From the NCBI RefSeq assembly GCF_051903065.1, contig NZ_CP178438.1: a stretch of DNA of 64,000 bases; one strand, 5' to 3'. Of the stretch, positions 169 to 20,495 are shown piece by piece. A program made the position numbers and the translations under genes. Every line of letters starts with the position of its first letter. Within the stretch, counting starts at the first letter, position 1. The notes below the pieces were generated by a model. That model saw only the letters and a list, made by a program, of their open reading frames with translations. It did not search any database and was not told where the DNA came from. The stretch comes from Escherichia coli. Its GTDB lineage: Bacteria; Pseudomonadota; Gammaproteobacteria; Enterobacterales; Enterobacteriaceae.

Positions 169-816
<648 letters not shown>

Positions 817-919: not shown

Positions 920-1651
920 TCACCTGCCATCCAGTAGACGCCCCGGCCCACGACTGCAACCATAATTACGTTGCCCAGAACCGTCATGCTGCTTCGTCTC
1001 ATACTTCACGAGATAACAGGCTCTCTCCATGGCTTTCTGCATCGCTTCCACATCACCACGCTTGACCCAGAGAACAGCGGCTTCACCCGGCTTTTTGTCT
1101 GAAGCCTTCCTGGTTTCAGAACATCCACCCGACAAAGGCGTATCATCGGAAGAAGGGCGAGCATCAGATGATGTCGGTTTACGGAAAGGCGTCCGCCTGG
1201 AAAAATGAACCAGTCCATTACCCTGCCAGGGCTCGAGATGCAGAGCACTGCACCATGCCAGCTTGATCAGCGTCGCCAGCGAAGAAGGAACGGTGAAATC
1301 CCCTGGCGAGCACCAGGTATCTTTGTTGAGCAGTAATATCACGTGATAATGTTTCCTGCCTTTTTCCTTGCCAAACTCCCGACACCAGAAATAACGCAGA
1401 GTGGTTGCACGCACACGCTTGTTGGCACGTCGTTTTTTCCGCTGGTAAGCCTGAATTTTTGCTTTCAGGGATTCGAAAAAACGAGAAATCACTGCTGAAT
1501 CTAAATCGGTATCCATAATAGTGGCAGGCATATACTCAGGAAAACGTAAATCCACCCGAATTAACGAGACGGCACGGTGCTGCACTAGGGCACTGTCGAG
1601 AAGGCTGTCAAAACGGGATAACCAGTAAGCATTGTGTATTGGTTGATTCAT
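920..1651 (-). CDS. YfjJ/YagK-family protein (inovirus Gp2-like) of cryptic prophages
   Basis: 243 aa ORF; recalled similarity to E. coli YfjJ/YagK paralogs; sits beside the CP4-like module. Confidence 0.7.
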   Translation of the reverse strand: MNQPIHNAYWLSRFDSLLDSALVQHRAVSLIRVDLRFPEYMPATIMDTDLDSAVISRFFESLKAKIQAYQRKKRRANKRVRATTLRYFWCREFGKEKGRKHYHVILLLNKDTWCSPGDFTVPSSLATLIKLAWCSALHLEPWQGNGLVHFSRRTPFRKPTSSDARPSSDDTPLSGGCSETRKASDKKPGEAAVLWVKRGDVEAMQKAMERACYLVKYETKQHDGSGQRNYGCSRGPGRLLDGR

Positions 1652-2499
1652 GATGAGAGATCTCCGTTGATTTGGATTGACTTCACATCATTAATCACTG
1701 CGGTAAAACTTTACGGCATCCCGCCATTGAGCAACGCCAATGGCTCCTGATTAAAACAGAATGAATCCCCCACGAAGAAAAGATAAACCTACACGCAGGG
1801 TAAAACACACAACAACGGCATAAATGGTTTTTAAAAACTACAAAGCCCGAAGGGAAACGGATCAACAGAACGTGCAAACAAAACACCAAAAACGCAATCA
1901 GAACGCTTTCTGCTGCTGTGAATCAACAACAATACCAAAACCTACAGCTTAACCACAAAACTCAATCACAGAGCCGAATAGCGCGTTTAAAACCTGTTTA
2001 CAGATAACCCTGCCCCGAGAACAAAAACCACCAACATCAGAATCGATTTTCTTATCCTGAAAACGTTACTTTTCAACACACCATAAAAACGATTAACCAT
2101 CGATAACGTAAATCTCATCTGAATCAAAACACCAGAACCAATCATCACGCTTTTTCTGAAAAGAGCCTTATGATGAAGATAATCACCTTGCACTGAGAAA
2201 AAACACCAGGGCCAGTTAATCATCTCATCAATCTTATCGCTACAAAATCATCCATAAAACCATTTAACAAAATCATCGTAAGCACACAGTAAATCACGCC
2301 AGGTTATCTCAGCCGGATTTGCGTTTTACATAAAAACACTTGTCTCAGGTTAACGACTAAAAACACGAAAACTCATAAAAGGTTAAATGTAACATCAGAA
2401 AAATAGAATATCATATTGATTGCTTAAACAGGAAAGATTGTTTTGTAGTAGCATTAAGCTGATTTTAGTTAACGTAAAAACAGGACTGACAGGTTTACT

Positions 2500-2722
2500 A
2501 AACTGGATGTGTATCAGACAAAGCAATGTGTATAACAATACTTAATGAAAACACTTGTAGAATTGTTTATGAAAACATGTGTATGTCTGGTAAAACACTT
2601 AGTAGAAAATACGTGTATAACACTTACTGAAATGCTTAGTAAAAACACTTAGTAAAATATGTGTAGAATTATCTATTTAAAAAGATATGTATATAACACT
2701 TAATAAAAACATGTGTATATAG
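2500..2722. repeat. Array of degenerate direct repeats (ATGTGTAT / AACACTTA units), iteron- or operator-like
   Basis: At least seven copies of ATGTGTAT-like and five of AACACTTA(G/A)TA-like motifs within about 220 bp of AT-rich DNA; fused unit GTGTATAACACTTA seen at about 2612 and 2687. Confidence 0.55.
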
Positions 2723-3401
2723 TATCATACCGACATTCTCAACATCTTCAGACACTCATGCAGACTGAATGTTCGTTTCAGTTTTTCACGGCCAGCATGG
2801 GGATTTTTGTTCTGAAAACGGAGCAGATTTACTCTGGAATTATTTTTCTGTCCCCGTATTTCAGGCCCCAGAAAAGACAATCCGAAGCAAACCGTTTGTC
2901 AGCTTCCATATCATCTTTTACCCCCGGAAAGTGATCGCGTTTTACAACCAGAATGACAGCCATACTGATTATGTCGTCTCCCGGCCCCCTTCACATATAA
3001 CATGCATGCCTGTCATTGCTTACTGCTCCACATGACAGGATTTCACATACAGGATGCGCATTCAGTGTTTTTATCGCCACTATAACAGACAGATTACTGT
3101 CGCTTTTACTCTTCAGATTGTTAATCTGACCACAAGAACAGTCGAACAGTACAACGACACACCCAAGGAGGATATGAGCAGTAGTTGATAGCATGTTTTA
3201 ATTTATTATGAATAGATCAAGAATAGATCGTGAATAGTTAGAGAATAGTTCTTCAGCATCTCACAGAGTGATCAAGCCTTGAAGTGATTGCTTTTTGAAC
3301 ACAAGTCCGGATGCAATGTTTTTTTGTTAACTTCCTTGCATATTCGATTTCCATGTGATAGTGAAAATCACCAGAAGAGAATGCGATTGAGGCGTAATCA
3401 G

Positions 3402-4211
3402 ATGAAACAATATGAAGATGGTTATAACGTGAATGGATATAGCTGGGAAAATGAAACAATTGAGTATTTGTTGAATGATAAACAACTGACAGATAATCAC
3501 ATACCTGAATGGGTTAAAAAAAATGAAATTGCAGCATTCTGGTTCTGGTTAGTTATAATTAACACAGATCCCAAACTCCTTGGGGTTCGTAATGAATTAG
3601 GGTTCAATACAGCCATGATGGGGCTGATTCCTGCGGGGAGTATACCCATAACAACAATTCCTTCAGATCATGAAATGAGACTGGATGTTATAAGCAAATG
3701 GATTAATGCATTAATCCTTGACAATCAATCAGATTGCTTCATCTCAACAATGCATCAAAACTGGCTGCAGATCGAAAAGAGAAACGAAGCCAAATGGCTT
3801 AAAAAGAATACAGAACAACTCGAATGGGCATGGAAATATATCAATGCACGCATCCCGCACACGTATCTTTCCTGGTTTTATCCTGTAAGTGATAACGAAA
3901 GATACATTGCTATCGTAGTTTTACTAAAAATTTTATTCCCCGCAGATACACCATACTTACAGCAGCCAAAAGTACTTCACTATGGGGTTGCCGCAAAAGA
4001 AAAATTTTTCGACAAGATGCACAATGCATTCCGAAAACAGTTTACCGACGGAAAAAAAGATAAGCGGGTACAAATCAACGTTAAAATATCATCAGATGCA
4101 AAACGTACTCTGGACAGACTGACCAGAGAACTGAAAACAACACAACAGGCTGTCCTGGAACATCTGATTCAGAACCACAGGCTGGTGATTCAGAACCACA
4201 GACTGTATTAA
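3402..4211 (+). CDS. Hypothetical protein with C-terminal ribbon-helix-helix-like segment
   Basis: ORF 3288-4211; preferred ATG at 3402 (MKQYEDG) preceded by GAGG. C-terminus RVQINVKISSDAKRTLDRLTRELKTTQQAVLEHLIQ resembles an RHH DNA-binding motif. N-terminal about 220 aa unrecognised. Confidence 0.5.
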   Translation: MKQYEDGYNVNGYSWENETIEYLLNDKQLTDNHIPEWVKKNEIAAFWFWLVIINTDPKLLGVRNELGFNTAMMGLIPAGSIPITTIPSDHEMRLDVISKWINALILDNQSDCFISTMHQNWLQIEKRNEAKWLKKNTEQLEWAWKYINARIPHTYLSWFYPVSDNERYIAIVVLLKILFPADTPYLQQPKVLHYGVAAKEKFFDKMHNAFRKQFTDGKKDKRVQINVKISSDAKRTLDRLTRELKTTQQAVLEHLIQNHRLVIQNHRLY

Positions 4212-5155
4212 CTTTCACCACTTCTGCTCCTGCCGATTTTCTTCTTTTGGTAGTGTCTCCTGGCTGCGGATATCAGATACTTTTCCGTCATTTTGTTGCA
4301 GAACTCTTCAATGTAGTTAATCATTTTCTGGTGTGCTTTCAGCTTTTCTTCCCCGGGGGACGCTTTCAGATAAATGTCCTCCTTTTCCACAAGCGCATTG
4401 ACAAACTCCCCTAAACATCCCTGGTTATAAAGCGACGTGAAAAACAACACATCCCCCAGTCTCTCCAGTAACTGTGGTTTATCCCCGAAATGTTTTTTTA
4501 TACTTTCAAAAGGTTTTCTATTTTCCGGATCAAAAAAAACACTTAATCCCAGTCGCTTATATTCCTGGTAAAAAAGTTCAAACGTCGGGGATGCTGAACG
4601 GCAAATAAACGAAGACTGCGCCCATGGATTAAAATCTGTGACACGCCTCCCCTCCCGCACTTCCTGTCGTGTCAGCGGTGGTTCAGCAAACCAGGCGTCC
4701 AGCTCAGCCGAATCGTTATCCCTGCTCAAAACCTCATACAAACTGCCCGTGAACGGTTGAGCCGTTTGTTTTGTTGCTTCGCCTTCTGATTGTCTGAATC
4801 CATCCACTTTTCTCCGGATATTACGCGGAATCAGCATAAAAGGCGGGACATTAAGTGATAAACGTTTACCCGTCATGCGATACCATTGACCTACCTCAAC
4901 CTTAATCCGTGTATCTGACTTTAGCTCAAGTGCCATTATGTTAAGCAGGTACAGATAACGCACCGTATAACGATTAAAATGTTTCTCCGGATCAAACGAT
5001 TCTGACCGTTCTCCTCTGTACACGAGTCTGCTGCGCTTCAGTATTCGCAGAGTATATTTCCAGGCCGGACTTTTACAAATGGCGGTAACTCTGGCCTTAT
5101 TAACAATGTCGCGTAATGCATCAATCTGTTGTGCAGTCATCTCTTCCCTCCACAC
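4208..5155 (-). CDS. Hypothetical protein, no recognisable domain
   Basis: 315 aa ORF (alternative start 5140, MTAQQ). Convergent with the previous gene; stop codons overlap within TTAA. Uninterrupted long ORF, basic C-terminal tail. Confidence 0.5.
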   Translation of the reverse strand: MWREEMTAQQIDALRDIVNKARVTAICKSPAWKYTLRILKRSRLVYRGERSESFDPEKHFNRYTVRYLYLLNIMALELKSDTRIKVEVGQWYRMTGKRLSLNVPPFMLIPRNIRRKVDGFRQSEGEATKQTAQPFTGSLYEVLSRDNDSAELDAWFAEPPLTRQEVREGRRVTDFNPWAQSSFICRSASPTFELFYQEYKRLGLSVFFDPENRKPFESIKKHFGDKPQLLERLGDVLFFTSLYNQGCLGEFVNALVEKEDIYLKASPGEEKLKAHQKMINYIEEFCNKMTEKYLISAARRHYQKKKIGRSRSGES

Positions 5156-5246
5156 TTTGTCACTCCAGATTTTTTCACGCCCATATTACCTGAATGATAA
5201 ACCGGATTAGTGTGATCCGGTTCAGTGAAATCAACAGGATACCGGT

Positions 5247-6131
5247 ATGTCATTCAGCCATTCTTCCCTCTCCGCACAAGTGAAATCATATCTGACGTTT
5301 CTTCCTGAAGAAATTCGCCAGAAAATCCTTGAACATCTCCACGGTGTTATTCATTACGAGCCCGTGATTGGCATTATGGGTAAATCCGGCACCGGCAAAA
5401 GCAGTCTGTGTAATGCCATTTTTCAGTCCCGTATCTGCGCCACGCATCCCCTGAACGGCTGCACCCGCCAGGCTCATCGCCTCACCCTGCAGATTGGTGA
5501 ACGCAGAATGACGCTGGTCGATCTGCCCGGCATTGGTGAAACACCGCAGCATGATCAGGAATACCGGGAGCTTTACCGTCAGTTACTGCCGGAACTGGAT
5601 CTGATTATCTGGATCCTGCGGGCTGATGAACGTGCGTATGCTGCTGATATTGCCATGCATCAGTTTTTACTGAATGAAGGTGCAGATCCCTCGCGTTTTC
5701 TGTTTGTTCTCAGCCATGCCGATCGCGTGTTTCCTGCTGAAGAATGGAACGACGCAGAAAAATGCCCGTCCCGTCAGCAGGAACTCTCACTGGCGACAGT
5801 AACAGCCCGGGTGGCCACCCTGTTCCCGTCATCATTTCCGGTACTCTCCGTTGCAGCGCCTGTCGGCTGGAATCTTCCGGCACTGGTGTCACTGATGATC
5901 CACGCACTGCCACCACAGGCAACCAGCGCGGTTTATTCACATATCCGGGGGGAAAACCGCTCTGAACAGGCCCGGAAACACGCACAACAGACTTTTGGTG
6001 ACGCCATCGGGAAAAGTTTTGACGACGCCGTTGCCCGGTTCAGTTTTCCGGCCTGGATGTTACAGCTTCTGCGTAAAGCCCGGGCCCGCATTATCCACCT
6101 ACTGGTCACACTGTGGGATCACCTGTTCTGA
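5247..6131 (+). CDS. YeeP/YkfA/YfjP-family P-loop GTPase of CP4-like islands
   Basis: Walker A GIMGKSGTGKSS; G3-like DLPGIGE; recalled similarity to the YeeP/YfjP/YkfA family. Confidence 0.8.
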   Translation: MSFSHSSLSAQVKSYLTFLPEEIRQKILEHLHGVIHYEPVIGIMGKSGTGKSSLCNAIFQSRICATHPLNGCTRQAHRLTLQIGERRMTLVDLPGIGETPQHDQEYRELYRQLLPELDLIIWILRADERAYAADIAMHQFLLNEGADPSRFLFVLSHADRVFPAEEWNDAEKCPSRQQELSLATVTARVATLFPSSFPVLSVAAPVGWNLPALVSLMIHALPPQATSAVYSHIRGENRSEQARKHAQQTFGDAIGKSFDDAVARFSFPAWMLQLLRKARARIIHLLVTLWDHLF

Positions 6132-6249
6132 GCGCCCCGGAGTCCCCCGTGGCAACCGTATACCTTTACACGACAACGGATTACGGTAACCACTGCCGTA
6201 TACCGTCTGTCATTATCAATAACACGCTCTTTAATTTCAGAGGTCAGTC

Positions 6250-6927
6250 ATGAATACCAGAATGCTTTTTCCCCTGCTGTTCACTGTGGCATCCTTCTCC
6301 ACCTCCGCCGGTAACTGGGCTGTCAAAAACGGCTGGTGTCAGACCATGACGGAAGATGGTCAGGCGCTGGTAATGCTGAAAAATGGCACGATTGGTATTA
6401 CCGGCCTGATGCAGGGATGCCCGAATGGCGTACAGACGCTCCTGGGCAGCCGTATCAGTATTAACGGTAACCTGATCCCCACATCACAAATGTGTAATCA
6501 GCAGACAGGATTCAGGGCTGTTGAGGTGGAAGTCGGACAGGCGCCGGAAATGGTCAAAAAAGCCGTTCACTCCATAGCAGAGCGTGATGTGTCCGTTTTA
6601 CAGGCATTTGGTGTACGAATGGAATTCACCCGCGGTGATATGCTGAAGGTCTGTCCGAAATTTGTCACATCACTTGCCGGTTTTTCCCCGAAACAGACAC
6701 CCGCCATTAATAAAGATTCCGTCCTGCAGGCTGCCCGGCTGGCATACGCCCGGGAATATGACGAGGAAACAACAGAAACCGCTGATTTTGGCTCTTACGA
6801 AGTAAAAGGCAATAAGGTTGAGTTTGAAGTGTTCAATCCTGAAGACCGTGCGTACGACAAAGTGACCGTCACGGTTGGTGCTGACGGTAATGCCACCGGT
6901 GCCAGCGTTGAATTTATCGGAAAATAG
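6250..6927 (+). CDS. Secreted protein of unknown function (N-terminal signal peptide)
   Basis: 225 aa; hydrophobic N-terminus MNTRMLFPLLFTVASFSTSAG; occupies the slot downstream of the GTPase where flu (Ag43) sits in CP4-44. Confidence 0.55.
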   Translation: MNTRMLFPLLFTVASFSTSAGNWAVKNGWCQTMTEDGQALVMLKNGTIGITGLMQGCPNGVQTLLGSRISINGNLIPTSQMCNQQTGFRAVEVEVGQAPEMVKKAVHSIAERDVSVLQAFGVRMEFTRGDMLKVCPKFVTSLAGFSPKQTPAINKDSVLQAARLAYAREYDEETTETADFGSYEVKGNKVEFEVFNPEDRAYDKVTVTVGADGNATGASVEFIGK

Positions 6928-6956
6928 CCGGTATGTCGGACTGTCACCCTGTTTAA

Positions 6957-7166
6957 TTGCCCGAAGGCCCTTTCTCACGCGAACAGGCGGTTGCCGTCAC
7001 AACAGCTTACCGCAATGTGCTTATTGAAGATGACCAGGGAACGCATTTCCGGCTGGTTATCCGTAATGCTGAAGGTCAGTTGCGCTGGCGGTACTGGAAT
7101 TTTGAATCCGATGCCGGAAAACAGCTTAATGTGTGGCTCGCCAGTGAAGGGCTTCTCAGACAATAA
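6957..7166 (+). CDS. Small conserved island protein (DUF905-like)
   Basis: 69 aa ORF followed directly by a hairpin plus T-tract terminator; family recalled from CP4-like islands; start uncertain. Confidence 0.4.
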
Positions 7167-7189
7167 ACGTCATTCATTTCATCCATCAG

Positions 7190-7220
7190 GCCGCGTCTTC
7201 TCCGGGAGGCGCGGCTTTTT
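7190..7220 (+). terminator. Rho-independent terminator
   Basis: GCCGCG ... CGCGGC stem followed by TTTTT. Confidence 0.6.
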
Positions 7221-7256
7221 CATTTATATCGCTAACTCATTCATAAGGAGCAAATC

Positions 7257-8075
7257 ATGCGATTAGCAAGTCGTTTTGGTTATGCGAACCAGATACGCCG
7301 TGACCGCCCCTTAACTCGCGAAGAACTGATGCAGGTCGTCCCCAGCGTATTCGGGGAAGATAAGCACACATCCAGAAGCGAGAACTATACCTGGATCCCC
7401 ACCATCACCGTGCTGGAAAGCCTGCAGCGGGAAGGCTTTCAGCCCTTCTTTGCCTGCCAGACCCGCGTACGTGACCCGGGCCGCCGGGGGTATACCAAAC
7501 ACATGCTGCGTCTGCGCCGTGACGGGGAGATAAACGGACAACATGTCCCTGAAATCATCCTGCTGAACTCCCATGACGGTACCTCCAGCTACCAGATGCT
7601 GCCGGGTTACTTCAGGTTCGTCTGCCAGAACGGCTGCGTCTGTGGTCAGTCTCTGGGGGAAGTGCGTGTTCCGCACCGGGGAAATGTGGTGGACAGAGTC
7701 ATTGAAGGGGCTTACGAAGTGGTGGGCGTTTTTGACCGGATTGAGGAAAAGCGTGATGCCATGCAGTCGCTGGTCCTGCCGCCACCGGCACGCCAGGCGC
7801 TGGCACAGGCGGCACTGACTTACCGTTATGGTGACGAACATCAGCCCGTCACCACCGCCGACATTCTGACGCCACGACGCCGGGAGGATTACGGTAAGGA
7901 CCTGTGGAGTGCTTATCAGACCATCCAGGAAAATATGCTGAAAGGCGGGATTTCTGGTCGCAGCGCTAAAGGAAAACGTATCCACACCCGTGCCATTCAC
8001 AGCATCGACACGGACATTAAGCTCAATCGCGCATTGTGGGTGATGGCAGAAACGCTGCTGGAGAGCATGCGCTGA
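7257..8075 (+). CDS. DUF932-family protein (YfjQ/YafZ-like)
   Basis: 272 aa; recalled similarity to YfjQ/YafZ; conserved position upstream of the antirestriction gene. Confidence 0.75.
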   Translation: MRLASRFGYANQIRRDRPLTREELMQVVPSVFGEDKHTSRSENYTWIPTITVLESLQREGFQPFFACQTRVRDPGRRGYTKHMLRLRRDGEINGQHVPEIILLNSHDGTSSYQMLPGYFRFVCQNGCVCGQSLGEVRVPHRGNVVDRVIEGAYEVVGVFDRIEEKRDAMQSLVLPPPARQALAQAALTYRYGDEHQPVTTADILTPRRREDYGKDLWSAYQTIQENMLKGGISGRSAKGKRIHTRAIHSIDTDIKLNRALWVMAETLLESMR

Positions 8076-8166
8076 TGCTGTTTCCCTGAAAGTGCAACCC
8101 TGACTCACGTCTGTACCAGTCCCCGGGCATTCTTCCATTCATTTACTTTTTATAAGGAATCATCTC

Positions 8167-8652
8167 ATGACAACCTTTTCGCATAGCTCCACCACGCCTT
8201 CTGTTTCCGTAACCACTGCACCAGGGAATAACCAGTCTCAACTGGTTGCCACTCCCGTCCCTGATGAACAGCGCATCAGTTTCTGGCCGCAACATTTTGG
8301 CCTCATTCCACAGTGGGTGACCCTGGAGCCCCGTGTCTTCGGCTGGATGGACCGTCTTTGCGAAGACTACTGCGGTGGTATCTGGAATCTGTACACCCTG
8401 AACAACGGTGGGGCATTTATGGTACCCGAACCGGATGACGATGATGACGAAACATGGGTACTGTTCAATGCCATGAACGGCAACCGCGCTGAAATGAGCC
8501 CGGAAGCCGCCGGCATTGCCGCCTGTCTGATGGCGTACAGTCATCACGCCTGTCGTACAGAGAATTATGCCATGACGGTCCATTATTATCGGTTGCGGGA
8601 TTACGCCCTGCAGCATCCGGAATGCAACGCCATTATGCGCATCATCGACTGA
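8167..8652 (+). CDS. Antirestriction protein, ArdB/KlcA-like (YfjX/YafX family)
   Basis: 161 aa; acidic stretch PEPDDDDDETW; family and position typical of CP4-like islands. Confidence 0.75.
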   Translation: MTTFSHSSTTPSVSVTTAPGNNQSQLVATPVPDEQRISFWPQHFGLIPQWVTLEPRVFGWMDRLCEDYCGGIWNLYTLNNGGAFMVPEPDDDDDETWVLFNAMNGNRAEMSPEAAGIAACLMAYSHHACRTENYAMTVHYYRLRDYALQHPECNAIMRIID

Positions 8653-8667
8653 ATGGAGAGAAGCACA

Positions 8668-9144
8668 ATGCAACAGCTTTCCTTTCTGCCCGGAGAGATG
8701 ACGCCCGGCGAGCGCAGCCTCATTCTGCGGGCCCTGAAAACCCTGGACCGCCATCTTCATGAACCCGGTGTGGCCTTCACCTCCACGCATGCGGCACGGG
8801 AATGGCTGATTCTGAACATGGCGGGACTGGAGCGGGAAGAGTTCCGGGTACTGTATCTGAACAACCAGAATCAGCTGATTGCCGGTGAAACCCTCTTCAC
8901 AGGCACCATCAACCGCACGGAAGTCCATCCCCGGGAGGTAATTAAACGTGCCCTGTACCACAATGCCGCTGCCGTGATACTGGCACACAACCACCCGTCC
9001 GGTGAAGTCACCCCCAGTAAGGCAGATCGCCTTATCACGGAACGCCTGGTACAGGCACTGGCCCTGGTGGATATCCGGGTACCGGACCATCTGATAGTTG
9101 GTGGCAACCAGGTTTTCTCCTTTGCGGAACACGGTCTGCTTTAA
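8668..9144 (+). CDS. yeeS: RadC-like JAB/MPN domain protein (YeeS/YfjY/YkfG family)
   Basis: JAMM motif HNHPSG; near identity to recalled YeeS from MQQLSFLPGEMTPGERSL; ORF track starts 15 nt upstream at 8653. Confidence 0.85.
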   Translation: MQQLSFLPGEMTPGERSLILRALKTLDRHLHEPGVAFTSTHAAREWLILNMAGLEREEFRVLYLNNQNQLIAGETLFTGTINRTEVHPREVIKRALYHNAAAVILAHNHPSGEVTPSKADRLITERLVQALALVDIRVPDHLIVGGNQVFSFAEHGLL

Positions 9145-9212
9145 CCCGTCACCGCCACAACCATATCACACCTGTTTTCACTTTTATCTTCTGTCTTCAG
9201 AGGTATCCCACT

Positions 9213-9434
9213 ATGAAAATCATCACCCGTGGCGAAGCCATGCGTATTCACCGTCAGCATCCGGCATCCCGTCTTTTTCCGTTCTGTACCGGCAAATACC
9301 GCTGGCACGGCAGTGCTGAAGCGTATACCGGTCGTGAAGTGCAGGATATTCCCGGTGTGCTGGCCGTGTTTGCTGAACGCCGTAAGGACAGTTTTGGCCC
9401 GTATGTCCGGCTGATGAGCGTCACCCTGAACTGA
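9213..9434 (+). CDS. yeeT: DUF987 protein (YeeT-like)
   Basis: 73 aa MKIITRGEAMRIHRQHPASRLFPF... matches recalled YeeT. Confidence 0.85.
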   Translation: MKIITRGEAMRIHRQHPASRLFPFCTGKYRWHGSAEAYTGREVQDIPGVLAVFAERRKDSFGPYVRLMSVTLN

Positions 9435-9513
9435 GTCTGGAAGGGCATTCAGAAGAGCAGAATTATCGCCACCACCGGACCATTCTTAACCAATTTTCTG
9501 TGAGGATTTTATC

Positions 9514-9888
9514 GTGTCAGACACTCTCCCCGGGACAACGCATCCCGACGATAACAACGACCGCCCCTGGTGGGGGCTACCCTGCACCGTGACGCCCTGT
9601 TTTGGGGCACGTCTGGTGCAGGAGGGTAACCGGTTGCATTACCTTGCAGACCGCGCCGGTATCAGAGGCCGGTTCAGCGACGCGGATGCGTACCATCTGG
9701 ACCAGGCCTTTCCGCTGCTGATGAAACAACTGGAACTCATGCTCACCAGCGGTGAACTGAATCCCCGCCATCAGCATACCGTCACGCTGTATGCAAAAGG
9801 GCTGACCTGCAAAGCCGATACCCTCAGCAGTTGTGGTTACGTTTATATGGCTGTTTATCCGACACTGGCACCCGCAACCACCTCATAA
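9514..9888 (+). CDS. cbeA: CbeA (YeeU) antitoxin of the CbtA/CbeA type IV toxin-antitoxin system
   Basis: 124 aa; near identity to recalled YeeU (MSDTLPGTT...WWGLPCTVTPCFGARLVQEGNRLHYLADRAGIRG). Confidence 0.9.
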   Translation: MSDTLPGTTHPDDNNDRPWWGLPCTVTPCFGARLVQEGNRLHYLADRAGIRGRFSDADAYHLDQAFPLLMKQLELMLTSGELNPRHQHTVTLYAKGLTCKADTLSSCGYVYMAVYPTLAPATTS

Positions 9889-9934
9889 CCCCGAATATCT
9901 CACCTTTAGCACTACCAGTTACAGAGAACTTAAG

Positions 9935-10312
9935 ATGAAAACATTACCTGACACACACGTACGGGAGGCATCGCGCTGCCCGTCTCCCGTCACCATCTGG
10001 CAGACACTGCTCACCCGACTGTTGGACCAGCATTACGGCCTCACACTGAATGACACACCGTTCGCTGATGAACGTGTGATTGAGCAGCATATTGAGGCAG
10101 GCATTTCACTGTGCGATGCGGTGAACTTTCTCGTTGAAAAATACGCACTGGTACGTACCGACCAGCCAGGATTCAGCGCCTGTACCCGTTCTCAGTTAAT
10201 AAACAGTATTGATATCCTCCGGGCCCGCCGGGCAACCGGCCTGATGGCCCGCGACAATTACAGAACGGTAAATAACATTACCCTGGGTAAACATCCGGGG
10301 GCGAAACAATGA
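9935..10312 (+). CDS. cbtA: CbtA (YeeV) toxin, cytoskeleton-binding type IV toxin
   Basis: 125 aa from ATG 9935 (MKTLPDTHV...); matches recalled YeeV (LNDTPFADERVIEQHIEAGISLCDAVNFLVEKYALVRTDQPGFSA); directly downstream of cbeA. Confidence 0.9.
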   Translation: MKTLPDTHVREASRCPSPVTIWQTLLTRLLDQHYGLTLNDTPFADERVIEQHIEAGISLCDAVNFLVEKYALVRTDQPGFSACTRSQLINSIDILRARRATGLMARDNYRTVNNITLGKHPGAKQ

Positions 10313-10800
10313 AACTGGCCCTGACGCTGGAAGCCGACAGCATTAACGTGCAGGCACTGAACATGGGGCGCATTGTCGTTGACGTCGATGGTGTTACTCT
10401 CGCTGAACTGATTAACGTGGTCTGCGATAACGGTTACTCCCTTCGTGTTGTTGATGAATCTGACCGGACATCAGCAGAGCGCACGCCATCATCTGCGGCG
10501 GCCCTTACCGGCATACGCTGCAGTACCGCGCATATCACGGCAAAGGACAACGCCTGGCTGTACTCGCTGTCACATCAGACGAATGGCACCGGCGAATCAG
10601 AATGGATTCATTTCACAGGTAGCGGATATCTGTTACGTACCGATGCGTGGTCATACCCGGTTCTGCGGCTTAAGCGCCTGGGCCTGTCAAAAACGTTCCG
10701 TCGTCTGGTTGTCACACTTACCCGACGTTATGGCGTCAGTCTCATTCATCTGGATGCCAGCGCTGAATGTCTGCCGGACCTGCCCACTTTCGACTGGTAA
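10309..10800 (+). CDS. YeeW-like protein
   Basis: 163 aa ORF whose start overlaps the cbtA stop; conserved position after cbtA. Confidence 0.65.
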   Translation: MKLALTLEADSINVQALNMGRIVVDVDGVTLAELINVVCDNGYSLRVVDESDRTSAERTPSSAAALTGIRCSTAHITAKDNAWLYSLSHQTNGTGESEWIHFTGSGYLLRTDAWSYPVLRLKRLGLSKTFRRLVVTLTRRYGVSLIHLDASAECLPDLPTFDW

Positions 10801-10811
10801 CCAGGAACAAC

Positions 10812-11009
10812 ATGAAATCATTAACCACGGAAACCGCACTGGATATTCTGATTGCGTGGCTACAGGACAATATCGACTGCGAATCGGGAATTATCTTTGA
10901 CAACGATGAGGATAGAACGGATTCGGCAGCACTGTTGCCCTGTATCGAACAGGCCAGGGAGGATATCCGTATCCTGCGCCAGTTGCAGCTTCTGCAACAG
11001 AACCGGTGA
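10812..11009 (+). CDS. Small hypothetical protein
   Basis: 65 aa from ATG 10812 (MKSLTTETALD...); followed by a hairpin plus T-tract terminator. Confidence 0.4.
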   Translation: MKSLTTETALDILIAWLQDNIDCESGIIFDNDEDRTDSAALLPCIEQAREDIRILRQLQLLQQNR

Positions 11010-11038
11010 GTCTTACTCACCAGACTTCATTCCACTGA

Positions 11039-11066
11039 CGCCAGCCTGAACAGGGCTGGCGTTTTC
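11039..11066 (+). terminator. Rho-independent terminator
   Basis: CGCCAGCC-TGAACAG-GGCTGGCG stem-loop followed by TTTTC. Confidence 0.65.
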
Positions 11067-11093
11067 ATTTATCTGCAAAAAGGAATATCGATT

Positions 11094-11960
11094 ATGTCTG
11101 AAATCACAGCCCCCCGTCCGGAAGTGGTCAACGGGCATACGGACGTTATCGGCTCAACCAGCATCCGCCACATTCTGGCTGTACGAAAGAGTGCGCTGCT
11201 GCAAATCGACACACTTATCCGGCAACTGGCAGAAATCTCGGTGCTGACGGAAAGCATCGGAGGTAAAACTGCACTGGACTGGGCCATGAAACAGGATTTT
11301 CGCTGCGGTTGCTGGCTGATGGAAAAACCGGAAACCGCAATGAAAGCCATCACCCGCAACCTTGACCGCGAAATCTGGCGTGATCTGATGCAACGTTCAG
11401 GGATGCTGTCATTAATGGATGCACAAGCCCGTGATACATGGTACCGGTCACTGGAGTACGATAATTTTCCGGAAATCAGCGAAGCAAATATCCTGAGCAC
11501 GTTTGAACAACTGCACCAGAACAAAGATGAAGTGTTTGAGCGAGGGGTGCTCAACGTTTTCAGAGGACTGAGCTGGAATTACAAAACCAATTCACCCTGC
11601 AAATTTGGCAGTAAAATTATCGTCAACAATCTGGTGAGGTGGGACCGGTGGGGGTTTCATCTTATCACCGGACAACAGGCCGATCGACTTGCCGATCTGG
11701 AAAGAATGCTGCACCTGTTCAGCGGCAAACCGATCCCCGACAACCGGGAAAACATCACCATTCATCTGGATGATCACATCCAGTCTGTTCAGGGTAAAGA
11801 GGACTATGAAGATGAGATGTTCAGCATCAGATACTTTAAGAAGGGCTCCGCGCACATCACGTTCAGGAAACCAGAGCTGGTTGACAGGCTTAATGATATT
11901 ATTGCCAGACACTACCCGGAAGCCCTGGCAAGCACAGTGAACAAAAGCCGCAAGGCATAA
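11094..11960 (+). CDS. Hypothetical protein (conserved island cargo)
   Basis: 288 aa uninterrupted ORF with AAAGGAA ribosome-binding site upstream; no catalytic motif recognised. Confidence 0.6.
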   Translation: MSEITAPRPEVVNGHTDVIGSTSIRHILAVRKSALLQIDTLIRQLAEISVLTESIGGKTALDWAMKQDFRCGCWLMEKPETAMKAITRNLDREIWRDLMQRSGMLSLMDAQARDTWYRSLEYDNFPEISEANILSTFEQLHQNKDEVFERGVLNVFRGLSWNYKTNSPCKFGSKIIVNNLVRWDRWGFHLITGQQADRLADLERMLHLFSGKPIPDNRENITIHLDDHIQSVQGKEDYEDEMFSIRYFKKGSAHITFRKPELVDRLNDIIARHYPEALASTVNKSRKA

Positions 11961-12031
11961 AAGAGGTATTTTACAATTCGCGAATATTAACTATTATTAA
12001 TTGATAGTAATCAATCGGCGAGAAAATAACC

Positions 12032-12295
12032 ATGCCTACCAGTGTATCCCTCAGTCCTTACTTTGAAACGTTTATCCGCGAACAAATAGAAAGTGGTCGG
12101 TACAACAATACAAGTGAAGTCATTCGTGCCGGACTTCGTGCTCTGGAAGAACGGGAACAGCAGATAAAGCTTGAATCACTCCAGAGCGCCGTGGCCGCAG
12201 GCATCAACAGCGGTGAAAGTAAAAGTGCTGAAGAGGTATTCGGGCGACTGACGCACAAATACAAAAAGATGGCAGAAGGTGAACAGCCAATATGA
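12032..12295 (+). CDS. parD: ParD-family type II antitoxin (RHH)
   Basis: 87 aa; start overlaps ParE by ATGA; motif SEVIRAGLRALEEREQ typical of ParD/COG3609. Confidence 0.8.
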   Translation: MPTSVSLSPYFETFIREQIESGRYNNTSEVIRAGLRALEEREQQIKLESLQSAVAAGINSGESKSAEEVFGRLTHKYKKMAEGEQPI

Positions 12296-12618
12296 AACTG
12301 ACTGTTTCACCATTAGCAGAACACGATCTTGAAGCTATAGGTGACTGGATCGCTCAGGATAATCCTGTCCGTGCAATCAGTTTTACCGAAGAGCTTTACC
12401 AACAATGTCTGTTGATAGCCGAATCGCCAGTACTCTACAGAGAAAGACCCGAGTTAGGGGCTGGGATCAGAGGTTGTTCGTATGGTCGTTACCTTCTGCT
12501 GTTCAGGGTACTGGATACTGAAGTTCGTATCGAACGTATCGTTCATGGTTCCCGGGATATCAACAGGGTACTTGCAGAGCCAGACGACAAACCATCAGAT
12601 CATTTCTGGCAGCCATAA
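12292..12618 (+). CDS. parE: ParE/RelE-family type II toxin
   Basis: 108 aa; 4-bp overlap with the upstream antitoxin; RelE/ParE-like size and context. Confidence 0.8.
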   Translation: MKLTVSPLAEHDLEAIGDWIAQDNPVRAISFTEELYQQCLLIAESPVLYRERPELGAGIRGCSYGRYLLLFRVLDTEVRIERIVHGSRDINRVLAEPDDKPSDHFWQP

Positions 12619-12895
12619 ACAAAATCTGTGCGTTAACGCTCCCTAACACAGGTAGCCAGGTATTTTATAAATCTCTGTATTTTGTTGTCACTTCGATTCC
12701 GCGATTCAGCATATCGAACCAGACAAAATGATTACAACAAACCACAAGAAAGAGGGATTATAGCGTCAAAAGAATTCGAATTGCACATGGGGGCCTCATT
12801 GGTGGCCTCAAAAAGAACAAGGATAAAACAGTCGATACAAAACAATTGGTTATATAACCAGTTTCATTCCGAGTCCGGGCACCACTATTCATAAG

Positions 12896-12920
12896 GCCTC
12901 GCTGCAAAGCGGGGCTTTTT
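12896..12920 (+). terminator. Rho-independent terminator
   Basis: GCCTCGC-TGCAAA-GCGGGGC hairpin (one G-U pair) followed by TTTTT. Confidence 0.5.
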
Positions 12921-13244
12921 CACTTTCTGGCTACGGTAGATTTCTGGCCATTGCAAAGCATTATCTATTGGCTGGTTTTTTTCGCCTTTTCACGGATGTT
13001 CGTGACGTTTATACACCTCAGTACCCTCTGATATACCTTCTCTCTGCTGCCTGAAAACAAGAAATTCAATAGGTTAATAATTTATGCGTTTGTCCATCTA
13101 AAGGCGACAGTTGCCACAGTATCTAAACTGACTGATGCAAAGTCCCTCTACCCGGTAAGGTATCAGGACCATCAACGCAGACTTTTCGCAACAACCACTA
13201 CCAAAATACCGCGTAAATAACCTTCCAGAACAAGCATGACTTTT

Positions 13245-13928
13245 TTAACTCTCTTTTCCCCACCTGAGAAGCACCTCTTCCGCAATCCCCACAGGCAAAA
13301 ACTCCTGCTCCAGACGACCACGCGGTAAACGGGTTAAGTAGCGATAAAAATCGGCCTCCTCGTTAAGCAAGCCATCAGGTACAGCTTCCTTCGCTATGAC
13401 CGGTTCTGGAACGGCGCTATGACTGGCATACTGCTCAAACAACTCACGGTTCATGAGCAGGGCATCAAGCGTCGGACGACAACGCCTGGCTCTCGCCAGC
13501 ATCAGTAGTCCCCAGCTATCCATGTCCCCCCAATAGGCAACGCGTTTTTCATCCAGAACAGAACTGGATAGCCATTGCACGTCCAGGCCACAGCCTAAAA
13601 TCGCGATAGTGTCAGATAATGCTGGAAGATGATGCAAACACTGCTCATTTTCAACCACCAGCACTTGCGACGCGGGTAATGTTGTTTCCGCCAGTTCCGC
13701 CGTTGTTACCCGGCATTTTTTAAAAGGAAGCAAGCCGGGTGATAATGGTACAACTAAAACCCAGTGACTGGACTCATCAAAAGCATCAAGAAAAGTTGTT
13801 AATCCCTGCTCGCTGGCTTCTCCTGAAAATCGCACGTCCAACTGACCATAGTGTTGTTCCACAAACGTAATTTCGGCAACCGTCCACTGTGCCCAGTGAT
13901 TACGGTAATGCTGCGTTTTATCCACCAT
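13245..13928 (-). CDS. Toprim-like (Topo VI-A/Spo11/JetD C-terminal-type) domain protein, standalone
   Basis: 227 aa; motifs VLVVENEQCLHHL and YWGDMDSWGLLML resemble the Toprim glutamate and DxD signatures of DUF2220/JetD; family assignment from recall only. Confidence 0.5.
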   Translation of the reverse strand: MVDKTQHYRNHWAQWTVAEITFVEQHYGQLDVRFSGEASEQGLTTFLDAFDESSHWVLVVPLSPGLLPFKKCRVTTAELAETTLPASQVLVVENEQCLHHLPALSDTIAILGCGLDVQWLSSSVLDEKRVAYWGDMDSWGLLMLARARRCRPTLDALLMNRELFEQYASHSAVPEPVIAKEAVPDGLLNEEADFYRYLTRLPRGRLEQEFLPVGIAEEVLLRWGKES

Positions 13929-13945
13929 GTCAGACCTCCCGGGTA

Positions 13946-15400
13946 TCAGTCTCGTTGTTTTTCCTGCGCCAGCGTAAAGATTTGAGCCCGGAGTTGTTGT
14001 TCAGCCTGCAGGACCGCCTGCTGACGCTGCAGTGAGACTTCAGGGAGCAACTTCAACTGCCGAAGCTGCTCTTCTACCGGTACGGTCTGCCGGAAGCTTG
14101 TCAGCATGCCAAAGACCTGCGATTTAAGCTCACTGACGGTAATGTATTTTCCTCTCTGACCATCAAGCGCATTCAGTTTATGGGCAAGTGCCTGAAGCTG
14201 TGTCATTCCTTCATGCCAGCCATTCATTGTATCGACAGGAAGTACTGAGACATTAACCTGTTGCTGCCACTGCTGTGTCAGAGGCTTAGCCTGCTCCGGC
14301 CACAACGACTGAGCTTGTTCTGTAAGTTTTCTGGCATAAGTGATATTCCAGTCAGGAGGTGATTTATCCAGTCGGGCCAGCTGCTGCTGTGTCTGTGCAA
14401 TAAGATCCTGCGGTAACGGAGTCTGCTGACGCAACATCCGCAGCTGTTCAGACGTGAGAGGTGCAGGGAACGGAGCCAGTGAAGCAGCTAGCTGATTCTG
14501 TAGAGGGTCTGGCCGGTGAATAAAATGCCAGCTCCACACTGAAACTATGCTTATCACCAACATGGTACACATCCCGGCGGCAAAGGATTTCCACTTTTTA
14601 ACCGGAACAGGCATTGTCGACAGCACTTCCACATTCGGCTGCGACTGCGGTTCCCGTTGAGCAACGTAAACCCACTGTACTGCACTCCCTGGCGTATCTT
14701 CATTCGGTCCACCAGAAAAGTCTCTCGTGGATGCTATCGCATCATTTGTCACGGTGGCAGGCAACCCGATACCAGGCTGAATGCTCGAGCCGGTACTGGT
14801 TATGCCATTGCTGTTTTCCAGCCGGGCAGCACTATTGTGCATCAGGATACGCAATGTATCGAGTTGGCTGAGATGTTTTAGCTCCAGGCGCTGTAGTACC
14901 TCTCCAAGGCCTGTAAGCAGTTGCTCCACCCGGTACAGCTGGTTGATGTCGCTGTAATTTAACGGGAGCGATCGCATTCGTTGCTGCAGGCGCTGACTCA
15001 GGCTGCTGAGGATTTCCATGCGGGCATGAACTGGATGCGGCCACAGAGTCCCCCACTGATGGCTTATCAGTGCCTCGAGTATCGCCAGCCCTTCATTGAG
15101 CCCGAATAAGCCAGCCAGCTGCGTACGCGCAAGCGTATACCAGGCTGCCGTTTGCAACTCCACGCCGTTCTGCTCAAACAGTGAGAGACAAAGTTTTTCG
15201 ACATACTGCCAGCTCACATCCGGGCGAGCCGGATGTGTTAGCTTACTCAGTTCATCACGCAGGGCGGCATAATCCGGTAGCATGCGCGGGTCGCCGCCGG
15301 TTTTTAATTTACGCTTGGGGATATCATTCATGGTCAGTTGTCCATTAGACGTACCAGGGGCTATTAAAGGGTATTGTTTATGCGGCTTCACTTTCTGCAT
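13946..15400 (-). CDS. ImpA_N-domain, membrane-anchored type VI secretion accessory protein (VasL/TagA-like)
   Basis: N-terminal GGDPRMLPDYAALRDEL...DVSWQYVEKL...LQTAAWYTLAR...GLNEGLAILEALISHQWGTLWP matches the ImpA_N signature; one predicted transmembrane helix (FAAGMCTMLVISIVSVWSW); start may be the internal ATG at 15331. Confidence 0.7.
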   Translation of the reverse strand: MQKVKPHKQYPLIAPGTSNGQLTMNDIPKRKLKTGGDPRMLPDYAALRDELSKLTHPARPDVSWQYVEKLCLSLFEQNGVELQTAAWYTLARTQLAGLFGLNEGLAILEALISHQWGTLWPHPVHARMEILSSLSQRLQQRMRSLPLNYSDINQLYRVEQLLTGLGEVLQRLELKHLSQLDTLRILMHNSAARLENSNGITSTGSSIQPGIGLPATVTNDAIASTRDFSGGPNEDTPGSAVQWVYVAQREPQSQPNVEVLSTMPVPVKKWKSFAAGMCTMLVISIVSVWSWHFIHRPDPLQNQLAASLAPFPAPLTSEQLRMLRQQTPLPQDLIAQTQQQLARLDKSPPDWNITYARKLTEQAQSLWPEQAKPLTQQWQQQVNVSVLPVDTMNGWHEGMTQLQALAHKLNALDGQRGKYITVSELKSQVFGMLTSFRQTVPVEEQLRQLKLLPEVSLQRQQAVLQAEQQLRAQIFTLAQEKQRD

Positions 15401-15995
15401 ATTCGAGACTCTGCAGATACTTTAGCGCCAGCGGGTCAGCAATATATTCAACCTGCCCGTGGTGACGCTCCACCTCATCGATTATCCGGCTGAGTTCACC
15501 CCGGAAAAACTTCTTATGCAGGTTGATTCGGTTAATCCGGTAGCTTTCCAGAGGGTCATGTAGTGTCTTTTCAAGCGCAGGAGCGTCATCGCTGGAAATC
15601 ATGGCGTGTGCGTCAAAATCAAACAGCACGGCTGCCCCGCTCAGTTCTTTCACGCGCTCCATAGGCTCCAGCCGTCGGGCCATGCCGATTTTGAAGACGT
15701 TTTCACCGAAGGAGCCGATATTAGAAATTACATACACATGTCCCTGCTTCGTGAACTGGGCCATAGATTTGGCGCGTTCATACTGCTGATGAACGTCCTG
15801 TATTTTCCGCTCCAGCTCCAGACGCTGTCTTTCCAGTTCATCCCTGTGAGCACCTTCTACGGCGAGCAGGGCTTCTTCCAGGAATACCGGTACACATTTT
15901 ACCGACCGGTCGTCGATACGAAGAACGAGTGCGCCAATATCAAATACTCCCCACTCAACCAGCAGGTCCGTAACGGATGTACTGATCAGTGTCAA
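15378..15995 (-). CDS. T5orf172 (GIY-YIG-like) domain protein with N-terminal coiled coil
   Basis: GHVYVISN...FKIGMARRLEPMERVKEL...LEKTLHDPL...INLHKKFFRGEL matches the T5orf172/Mug113 pattern; overlaps tssE by 41 bp and the VasL ORF by 23 bp, so the start is uncertain. Confidence 0.55.
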   Translation of the reverse strand: MTLISTSVTDLLVEWGVFDIGALVLRIDDRSVKCVPVFLEEALLAVEGAHRDELERQRLELERKIQDVHQQYERAKSMAQFTKQGHVYVISNIGSFGENVFKIGMARRLEPMERVKELSGAAVLFDFDAHAMISSDDAPALEKTLHDPLESYRINRINLHKKFFRGELSRIIDEVERHHGQVEYIADPLALKYLQSLEYAESEAA

Positions 15996-16425
15996 GATAC
16001 TGCTGTTGCTTCAGGTGTCTCAGCATCACTCGTCCCTCGGGCATAAACTCGGTGCCGTAACGCACGAGGCCAATCCCCTTAAGCTCAGCATCAATGGCAT
16101 AACGAAGCTCGCCGGGGACGCTCTGCTCCAGCAGGATGACAGTAATTTTTTTCAGGCGCGGTTCGTATTTGAGCAGGACGGCAGACAATGTGCCCATCAG
16201 CTCATGGGCCGTTCCCGGCATGCCCTGGAGAACTCTGGTCATATCCGGCAGGCCATAGTCCGGCAGATGCGCCAGCGTGCCGGCACGGCAGTTGAGGATA
16301 CGCTGCATATTGTCGAGTACGGACAAAATGACCTGGTTCTGCTCGCTGACCTGGTGCAGGTCGAGGCCGCCGGTGAAGTTGCCATAAAGAGTTTCATACA
16401 ATGAAGGACGGGATGACTCACTCAT
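15955..16425 (-). CDS. tssE: Type VI secretion baseplate subunit TssE (gp25-like)
   Basis: 156 aa; motifs SLYETL, LDNMQRILNCRAGTLAHLPDYGLPD, LKYEPRL typical of the TssE/GPW-gp25 family. Confidence 0.75.
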   Translation of the reverse strand: MSESSRPSLYETLYGNFTGGLDLHQVSEQNQVILSVLDNMQRILNCRAGTLAHLPDYGLPDMTRVLQGMPGTAHELMGTLSAVLLKYEPRLKKITVILLEQSVPGELRYAIDAELKGIGLVRYGTEFMPEGRVMLRHLKQQQYLDTDQYIRYGPAG

Positions 16426-16960
16426 CTTTCAGCGCCTTCAGGGTCAGGCGGTTGTTACCGGCCTCAATCACCCGGGCTTTATCCGGATCAAGGTCATCAC
16501 GGCTCAGCACCACCCGCCAGGTGTTGTTCACCTGGTCTGGCGACATAAACATGCCAGCCACTGCGACATACTGCGCATTTTCATCCATCGGCATATCCAC
16601 CATCACCGCCCCACCCGGCTGCAGGCGGATGTCTTTCTCAGCTACCAGGTCTGCTTTAATGGCCTGACTGTCCGCCCTGAACAGTGACGGGTAGTCCGTC
16701 GTGTCAAAGGTTTTGCGGTCTTTAAGCTGGTAAATACGCACCACCGTCGACAATGCCACGCCGCCTGCATTGCTGTTCACTGCCTCACGGGCCCGAATAT
16801 CCAGATGCAGAGTTTTTATCTGCTTATAAAAAATCGATTTGGTCACAGCAACGGTGCCGTCTGTCACTTTTTGCGTCAGCCCACAGCCCGCCAGCATCAA
16901 GGTGATACCCGCGGCCAGCGCAGCCAGAGGAAATTTACCAGCGGTAATCGCCATCTTCAT
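16418..16960 (-). CDS. tssJ: Type VI secretion lipoprotein TssJ (SciN/VasD-like)
   Basis: Start MKMAITAG with lipobox LAGC; VVRIYQLKD...LQPGG...AVAGMF pattern of the TssJ family; ATG at 16960 checked on the sequence. Confidence 0.75.
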   Translation of the reverse strand: MKMAITAGKFPLAALAAGITLMLAGCGLTQKVTDGTVAVTKSIFYKQIKTLHLDIRAREAVNSNAGGVALSTVVRIYQLKDRKTFDTTDYPSLFRADSQAIKADLVAEKDIRLQPGGAVMVDMPMDENAQYVAVAGMFMSPDQVNNTWRVVLSRDDLDPDKARVIEAGNNRLTLKALKDE

Positions 16961-17580
16961 CGGTCTCCCTGCGGTGAATATTTTCCTGTACCCGCTCATA
17001 GCGGCCCAGATTAATGGTGATTGTTTTTGGGTGTGATGCGGTCCTGGCCGCATTCAGCGGTCGCATCACGGCAGTGCGGCCCAGTTGCACCGCCCCTGCG
17101 TTGGGTTTACTGCTCATGGTCGCGTCAGGAAGCAGACTGCGATCGACACACAGCTGTAGCCGCACATCCAGGCGAGACCCAAGATACACGTGCAGGAGCG
17201 CCATCAGGTCCGCGTGAAGCTCCCCGCCCGATAACCAGCCCTGCACTTCTGCCGGGTCAGTGGTGGTCAGGCGCATCAGCACCTGGCTGTTCACGTCGGC
17301 GGCATAGTTGCCCATCACCGGTCGGTTTGTCAGGGTGACGGGCTGGCTAACGCTCATGGTCAATGGCTTCTTCAGCGGCACACGGCGTTTGTCGTGGTGC
17401 CAGATTTTCGCCTGCGTGTTGGGTGCCAGCAGGCGCACCAGCGAGGCCATGCCTTCTGCGGTACGCCCCGGCAGTAACATGACCGGCAGCAGTGCCAGAA
17501 AGCGCGAAGCCGGGGTCGCGATACTGTCCGTGCAGCCGTTAATCCCGAGCCCGGCCAGTCCCAGCAGGTACTGCGAGGTT
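16935..17580 (-). pseudogene. C-terminal fragment of a type VI secretion-associated gene, truncated by IS1
   Basis: The reading frame runs without a native start into the IS1 end at 17581; identity (TssG or other) not resolved. Confidence 0.5.
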
Positions 17581-17595
17581 GGTAATGACTCCAAC

Positions 17596-18099
17596 TTATT
17601 GATAGTGTTTTATGTTCAGATAATGCCCGATGACTTTGTCATGCAGCTCCACCGATTTTGAGAACGACAGCGACTTCCGTCCCAGCCGTGCCAGGTGCTG
17701 CCTCAGATTCAGGTTATGCCGCTCAATTCGCTGCGTATATCGCTTGCTGATTACGTGCAGCTTTCCCTTCAGGCGGGATTCATACAGCGGCCAGCCATCC
17801 GTCATCCATATCACCACGTCAAAGGGTGACAGCAGGCTCATAAGACGCCCCAGCGTCGCCATAGTGCGTTCACCGAATACGTGCGCAACAACCGTCTTCC
17901 GGAGCCTGTCATACGCGTAAAACAGCCAGCGCTGGCGCGATTTAGCCCCGACATAGCCCCACTGTTCGTCCATTTCCGCGCAGACGATGACGTCACTGCC
18001 CGGCTGTATGCGCGAGGTTACCGACTGCGGCCTGAGTTTTTTAAGTGACGTAAAATCGTGTTGAGGCCAACGCCCATAATGCGGGCTGTTGCCCGGCAT
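17596..18099 (-). CDS. insB: IS1 InsB
   Basis: 167 aa matching recalled IS1 InsB. Confidence 0.9.
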
Positions 18100-18293
18100 C
18101 CAACGCCATTCATGGCCATATCAATGATTTTCTGGTGCGTACCGGGTTGAGAAGCGGTGTAAGTGAACTGCAGTTGCCATGTTTTACGGCAGTGAGAGCA
18201 GAGATAGCGCTGATGTCCGGCGGTGCTTTTGCCGTTACGCACCACCCCGTCAGTAGCTGAACAGGAGGGACAGCTGATAGAAACAGAAGCCAC
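18018..18293 (-). CDS. insA: IS1 InsA
   Basis: 91 aa [43 protein letters not shown]... matches IS1 InsA. Confidence 0.9.
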
Positions 18294-20140: not shown

Positions 20141-20495
20141 ATTGTTCAGTCTCTTATTATCTTTATATGCTTGATATACTTAAGGTTGTAATAAGCAAAA
20201 GAGGACTGAACTGTAAAATATAGGCGTTATACTTTACAGCAACAGTACGCCGCTAACGCAATTGCTACCTCTGGCATAACAAGTATATCGGGTAAGGGTT
20301 TCTGTTCCGCACACGCAGGCGCAGAGTATCGTTAAGATATCCATATTGTTGTTTTAGGCCCGCTAGTAATGCGCTACGGGTATTTAATATTGTTAAACCC
20401 TGATAATCGCTCCGGTTATTTCCGGGATAAATGTACTACCGCAGTTACTATCATAGCCCCGACAATAAAACTTGCCGGGGCTTTTTTTGACGCTA

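Follow-up and report, generated by a model that had tools for sequence, protein, structure and literature searches.

A Toprim-encoding reading frame in the pheV-glcA interval of Escherichia coli is very probably a chimeric relic of the Wadjet gene jetD

What is the origin of the small Toprim protein encoded on the minus strand at 13245-13928, and does it act as a nuclease in its own right? The program-made ORF list of the window (the whole 64-kb stretch of DNA that was analysed) contains a real ORF of 227 codons at this position. A sequence-only reading had remarked on the small size of the product, on the motifs VLVVENE and YWGDMD (residues 89-95 and 132-137, respectively), on the missing N-terminal arm domain, and on the absence of jetABC-like genes nearby, and the ORF list, Pfam, and tblastn bear out all of these facts. 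Pfam places JetD_C (PF09983) on residues 50-219 (E 3.7e-42, model positions 2-178 of 179) and detects no other domain in the 227-aa product; the N-terminal JetD domain (PF11795, also DUF3322) is absent. An NCBIfam search of the ORF returned no match. PADLOC matched the JetD1 model PDLC00532 (E 1.6e-101), and only at profile positions 185-381 of 383. We also considered a standalone Toprim nuclease of the OLD or AriB type (DUF4435-type) and rejected this assignment, as PADLOC returns JetD models only.

The closest solved structure is that of JetD itself. A search of the PDB aligned residues 29-227 of the ORF with residues 184-382 of JetD(E248A) in 8q72 chain M (E 2.2e-130, approximately 99% identical), and together with the PF09983 match this near-identity confirms the earlier assignment of the two motifs to a JetD-type Toprim. 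Residues E93, D135, and D137, which lie within VLVVENE and YWGDMD, correspond to E248, D290, and D292, which bind metal in the JetD Toprim; the acidic residues singled out from the sequence at the start are thus the published catalytic residues. According to the JetD literature, these three are the counterparts of the Topo VI-A Mg2+ ligands, and the E248A mutation abolishes plasmid restriction. In an alignment of 21 homologs reaching down to 58% identity, E93, N94, E95, Y132-W133-G134-D135, and D137 are invariant, and this check of the acidic residues leaves the Toprim assignment standing.

A structure prediction was likewise compared with known folds. The AlphaFold2 model, built from a 22-sequence alignment, has a mean pLDDT of 60, with values below 50 at residues 1-57, 61-81, and 93-102, and ten-residue blocks averaging at least 75 from residues 121 to 210. 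With this mediocre model, the top Foldseek matches in the PDB were Pseudomonas aeruginosa JetD (7TIL, E 7.8e-17) and Corynebacterium glutamicum MksG (8B7F, E 2.2e-6), while the match to Topo VI-A (1D3Y) was non-significant (E ~1.2, TM 0.30, low-confidence model). The anticipated structural resemblance was therefore recovered for JetD and MksG and not for Topo VI-A. For the fold, we rely on the near-identity in sequence (~99%) with the solved JetD and not on this model. P. aeruginosa JetD and C. glutamicum MksG have a homologous Toprim (phmmer E 6.1e-79 and 6.8e-4, respectively); unlike the product of the ORF, the 7TIL and 8B7F proteins are full-length two-domain dimers from four-gene operons. 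Topo VI-A/Spo11 (1D3Y) shares the Toprim fold class and the acidic metal-binding residues, per the JetD literature, whereas the ORF encodes neither a CAP/winged-helix domain nor a catalytic tyrosine, the latter being absent from full-length JetD as well.

Where does the reading frame come from? Residues 30-227 of the ORF align with residues 185-382 of the full-length, 382-aa JetD of E. coli FHI_NMBU_11 with 197 of 198 positions identical, and residues 1-29 have no similarity to the JetD N-terminus (BLASTP). Likewise, the JetD of strain GF4-3 matches the window as residues 185-382 only, at 13841-13248 (tblastn). In the DNA, the match to full-length jetD loci extends over 12863-13842 with 97.7% identity and then ends abruptly (blastn); the breakpoint is at 13841/13842, and a three-way alignment puts it inside ...GGTCAGTTG / GACGTGCG... 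(the slash marks the break). The gene is truncated with respect to its intact orthologs, its DNA homology breaks sharply, and foreign sequence lies past the break, as is characteristic of a gene remnant. The features of the ORF and its upstream region are as follows.

13245-13841, minus strand: 3' remnant of jetD, codons 185-382 plus the stop codon, with a complete Toprim (JetD_C); from BLASTP, blastn, and PDB 8q72 chain M.
13518-13520, minus strand: catalytic codon D137, checked in the sequence.
13524-13526, minus strand: catalytic codon D135, checked in the sequence.
13650-13652, minus strand: catalytic codon E93, checked in the sequence.
13842-13928, minus strand: foreign 5' end of the chimeric ORF, ATG plus 28 codons; from homology to the gene after vasL in related type VI secretion system (T6SS) islands.
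13935-13940, minus strand: GGGAGG, a Shine-Dalgarno-like site 6 nt upstream of the ATG, read from the sequence.
13946-15400, minus strand: vasL, an ImpA_N-type T6SS gene directly upstream; from NCBIfam TssA-like matches and the PGAP name 'VasL domain-containing protein'.

The foreign sequence has an identifiable source. The 87 nt upstream of the break, the ATG included, are approximately 87% homologous to the start of a gene of approximately 104 codons that follows vasL in strains BA92 and SEC470. In the alignment with BA92 and SEC470, the homology runs up to ...CACTATGGTCAGTTG and the sequences diverge beyond it; the BA92 protein reads ...TEITFVEQHYGQL / SARKIG..., and the window reads ...AEITFVEQHYGQL / DVRFSG.... 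The donor gene is conserved in related T6SS islands, where it overlaps the vasL stop codon (locus L004, 5800-6114, in strain BA92), and no Pfam family matched its ~104-aa product. In the window, the vasL stop codon stands 17 nt before the ATG of the ORF, and the GGGAGG site is inherited from the T6SS-island gene. Read from these alignments, the 227-codon ORF is an in-frame chimera in which 29 codons of a T6SS-island gene precede jetD codons 185-382.

The chromosomal setting leads to the same gene. In GF4-3 and FHI_NMBU_11, the gene order is pheV-jetD-jetC-jetB-jetA-glcA, and the ORF occupies the same chromosomal site as the characterised jetD of GF4-3, to which it is orthologous by position. 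From the 3' end of pheV to the 3' half of jetD inclusive, the flank shares 97-98% identity with both strains. Two features of the plus strand mark the pheV side of the interval.

12866-12884, plus strand: the last 19 nt of tRNA-Phe (pheV), representing the attR repeat of an island; an exact 19-nt match to the pheV 3' end.
12893-12918, plus strand: a terminator-like hairpin just past the pheV fragment, between attR and the jetD stop codon; from a consensus scan only.

ARAGORN finds no tRNA gene in the 64-kb window. Since the 19-nt tRNA-Phe end is present and a tRNA gene is not, positions 1-12865 of the window represent the right end of an island integrated at pheV. The sequence to the right of 12866-12884 is the native flank downstream of pheV, and it carries the jetD remnant; the hairpin at 12893-12918 is probably the pheV terminator. 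The right end of the island (window 1-12884) encodes a GTPase, a DUF932 protein, an antirestriction protein, RadC, a YeeU/CbtA toxin-antitoxin pair, a DUF4942 protein, and ParD/ParE (12032-12618). The sequence-only reading had described an isolated Toprim nuclease module, unusual in accessory DNA; what lies here instead is the 3' 198 codons of a GF4-3-type jetD at its native locus.

What remains of the operon? Searched with GF4-3-type sequences, the partner genes jetA (DUF3375), jetB (DUF4194), and jetC (SMC ATPase) do not stand alongside the remnant, and jetA, jetB, and jetC of GF4-3 have no tblastn match within the 64-kb window. Between the jetD remnant and glcA there is only a T6SS fragment composed of vasL, a truncated GIY-YIG gene, tssE, tssJ, and a tssG cut by IS1. 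Within the window, there is no jetA remnant on the glcA side of this fragment, which would be a sign of insertion into the operon.

The T6SS fragment is itself a remnant. It occupies 13946-18293 on the minus strand and comprises vasL, tssE (15955-16425), tssJ (16418-17053), and a tssG without its N-terminus (16935-17594), which abuts the IS1 (17596-18293) beside glcA; genes for the sheath, baseplate-K, the membrane complex, or the spike cannot be seen within 13946-18293. The fragment also contains a second truncated defence gene, a 205-aa ORF on the minus strand between tssE and vasL (15378-15995), whose similarity to PD-Lambda-1 is confined to the C-terminal third (PADLOC PDLC03976, E 1.9e-65, profile positions 313-476 of 491) and which PGAP calls a GIY-YIG nuclease pseudogene with its N-terminus missing. 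Elsewhere in the window, the Rfam matches at gathering threshold (20219-20440, 45675-45751, 56724-56794, and 62576-62639) are ordinary E. coli features: the C0719 sRNA between glcA and glcB, two naRNA4 elements (REP-derived), and the ES173 sRNA.

We propose the following sequence of events. In the ancestor, the pheV-glcA interval would have housed the type I Wadjet operon jetABCD, an arrangement that GF4-3 has kept. The operon would then have lost jetA, jetB, jetC, and jetD codons 1-184 in a rearrangement by which the T6SS island was brought in or joined. The break, at a short GTT microhomology, would have placed jetD codon 185 in frame directly after codon 29 of the small gene of the island. 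This may have happened by insertion followed by deletion or by one-step replacement. The predicted 227-aa product would keep the whole Toprim, with its dimerisation surface and its E/DxD metal site, and would lack the aCAP docking and DNA-wrapping domain.

What could such a product do? The JetD literature describes the protein as a rigid arm-CAP (aCAP) domain flexibly joined to a C-terminal Toprim that mediates dimerisation, and reports that neither JetABC alone nor purified E. coli JetD alone cleaves DNA. In the cleavage-competent complex, aCAP docks on the JetC "larynx" via a pocket for JetC F919, mutation of which inactivates the system in vivo, and aCAP also contacts and wraps the DNA (JetD literature). 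The reference system is the JetABCD of GF4-3, which has been reconstituted and its structure solved (Liu et al. 2022; Roisne-Hamelin et al. 2023 preprints). With the JetD of this type I Wadjet/JET system (8Q72 chain M), the remnant shares approximately 99% of residues 185-382, the catalytic triad, and the site just downstream of pheV; it differs in lacking residues 1-184 (the aCAP) and the neighbouring jetA, jetB, and jetC, and in carrying 29 unrelated N-terminal residues. Since the aCAP is gone and there is no GF4-3-type JetABC motor in the genome, the product very probably cannot perform Wadjet plasmid restriction. Taking origin and non-function together, we consider it very probable that the chimeric gene is a relic of jetD, without Wadjet restriction, inert and drifting.

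Is the remnant under selection? Over the 198 codons that it shares with full-length jetD, the allele in the window differs by 1 non-synonymous and 12-13 synonymous codon changes. Among remnant alleles, the changes since truncation, polarised with full-length outgroups, number 4 non-synonymous (D135E, L158H, A168V, and R200H) to 1 synonymous, few events standing behind this count. The shift between the two ratios (4:1 versus 1:12-13) gives p = 0.008 by Fisher's exact test, with small counts. D135E, a substitution of the first Asp in DxD, is carried by an allele found on 61 contigs, and truncated alleles encode 65 aa (17 contigs) or 156 aa (4 contigs). Further variants include T44I, A80V, S105F, A109V, C113F, and A179T, with at least 10 amino-acid variants in public assemblies. 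Strong purifying selection thus appears to have given way to roughly neutral change, as a relic predicts, although the counts behind this comparison of alleles are small. In its amino acids, the window allele is identical to the consensus of full-length JetD 185-382, and the ORF is uninterrupted in 10 of 10 complete genomes with the junction. Because divergence since truncation amounts to at most 3 substitutions per 684 bp, the unchanged Toprim of the window allele reflects youth, not maintenance, and the intactness of the ORF says little either way. The remnant itself is most likely inert and drifting.

The family to which the product belongs has the architecture of full-length JetD. Among the best 120 of 825 homologs (E <= 1e-10), almost all are 379-395 aa long and contain both PF11795 and PF09983. 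The exceptions among these 120 are the chimera, four shorter two-domain proteins (281-355 aa), and two fragments with JetD_C only (184 and 172 aa), both labelled partial by their sources; the same 120 offer no evidence for a lineage of genuine standalone JetD_C proteins.

Could the chimeric ORF nonetheless be expressed as a standalone, deregulated Toprim nuclease, with the loss of the CAP domain freeing the dimer to serve as a new defence protein or toxin co-transcribed with the T6SS remnant? The Toprim is complete by its Pfam model (2-178 of 179), E93, D135, and D137 are intact and invariant across homologs, GGGAGG stands 6 nt before the ATG, the frame is open in all 10 complete genomes, and the exact protein occurs on 130 contigs. 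Furthermore, a 2023 review notes that in the closed JetD dimer the cleft for DNA appears to be obstructed by the CAP domains, so that a Toprim dimer without them might still be active, and that very high concentrations of JetD suffice for DNA cutting without JetABC. Against this, purified E. coli JetD alone showed no cleavage and the domain that contacts and wraps DNA is the missing aCAP (JetD literature), while the 4:1 ratio of non-synonymous to synonymous changes, the D135E allele on 61 contigs, and the 65-aa and 156-aa alleles speak against such a nuclease, as do the best 120 of 825 homologs, which apart from a few shorter exceptions are two-domain proteins of ~380 aa. Nor does expression favour it: a consensus scan of the minus strand between the ORF and IS1 found no promoter-like site, although read-through transcription may occur, and the counts of promoter and terminator sites were at or below shuffle expectation. 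Translation could follow if the upstream genes were transcribed, to judge from the good Shine-Dalgarno match and the position 17 nt after vasL. We regard an active standalone nuclease as highly unlikely and infer that the remnant lacks both function and meaningful expression.

A variant of the same idea would treat the ORF as a natural CAP-less JetD made from the T6SS remnant, a weak and unregulated nuclease, with the D135E and truncated alleles arising from selection against its toxicity. We give this about the same low probability; if it were true, nature would have provided at this locus a test of the autoinhibition model for JetD. It is speculation, and very doubtful, that the remnant acts as a decoy or dominant-negative factor against an incoming or resident Wadjet by heterodimerising with full-length JetD via the Toprim-Toprim interface. 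The Toprim does mediate JetD dimerisation, and wild-type JetABCD is inhibited in its cleavage in vitro when JetD(E248A) is in excess (JetD literature). However, this inhibition is accounted for by binding to JetABC, a step for which the aCAP is needed, and the remnant has none; in addition, remnant genomes are without GF4-3-type jetABC, and constraint appears relaxed. Finally, an assembly or sequencing artefact can be practically dismissed, given that the identical junction recurs in 10 complete genomes, assembled independently and drawn from several countries and hosts, and that protein variants occur on several hundred contigs.

How widespread is the relic of jetD, and is this its only form? 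In a survey of 5,426 complete E. coli genomes, the exact junction was found in 10; vasL is adjacent in 7 of these, and in the other 3 a further deletion has brought a truncated tssL alongside. A complete jetABCD of the GF4-3 type occupies the pheV-glcA site in 9 of the 5,426 genomes, GF4-3 among them, and there is no overlap between the 10 remnant genomes and the 15 genomes with any GF4-3-type jetABC DNA. In public databases, the exact 227-aa protein appears on 130 contigs and variants on several hundred more, under the names "Uncharacterized protein conserved in bacteria" and "JetD domain-containing protein".

Other genomes preserve other products of decay, at least four of them of independent origin. 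In PT62 and LP5-1, jetD is cut by IS1 and has an internal stop (locus L011, 3404-4063, in PT62); in W444 and MB53, jetABC is deleted and a 375-aa orphan jetD remains beside glcA (locus L012, 2404-3531, in W444); in LHM10-1 and CP52E, only 322 bp of the jetA 5' end persist beside ISEc52 (locus L014, 7092-7322, in LHM10-1). FHI_NMBU_11 has an internal stop in jetA, and GDSC2227PM has a shorter 3' scrap. Like the window type, these are leftovers of the jetABCD operon between pheV and glcA; they differ in breakpoints and partners, and the fusion to a T6SS-island gene is found in the window type only. The pheV-glcA interval is thus a turnover site at which at least five different routes, that of the window type included, have led to loss of the GF4-3-type Wadjet operon.

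In a sister lineage (CUWW06, locus L003, 9346-10323, protein P0122), a second deletion has placed the first ~96 codons of tssL (DotU) ahead of the remnant ORF and in the same frame. The resulting 325-aa triple chimera (TssL N-terminus, 29 aa, and JetD Toprim) occurs on 145 contigs and goes under the name 'putative type VI secretion protein' in one source.

What does the remnant mean for the annotation and study of Wadjet systems? It is already known, in that the parent protein is solved and RefSeq flags the remnant as a pseudogene: in ECNB21-M121, which is identical over this stretch, PGAP calls it "JetD domain-containing" and 'incomplete; missing N-terminus'. A known defence system has decayed here in an ordinary way, and no new kind of nuclease is involved. 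The main consequence is correct annotation, in that the ORF belongs neither among Wadjet systems nor among new standalone Toprim nucleases, and its importance beyond this is small. Remnants in the pheV-glcA interval can mislead domain-based scans for defence systems. At the same time, the remnant is a natural CAP-less JetD Toprim construct, which Wadjet biochemists could use in tests of autoinhibition.
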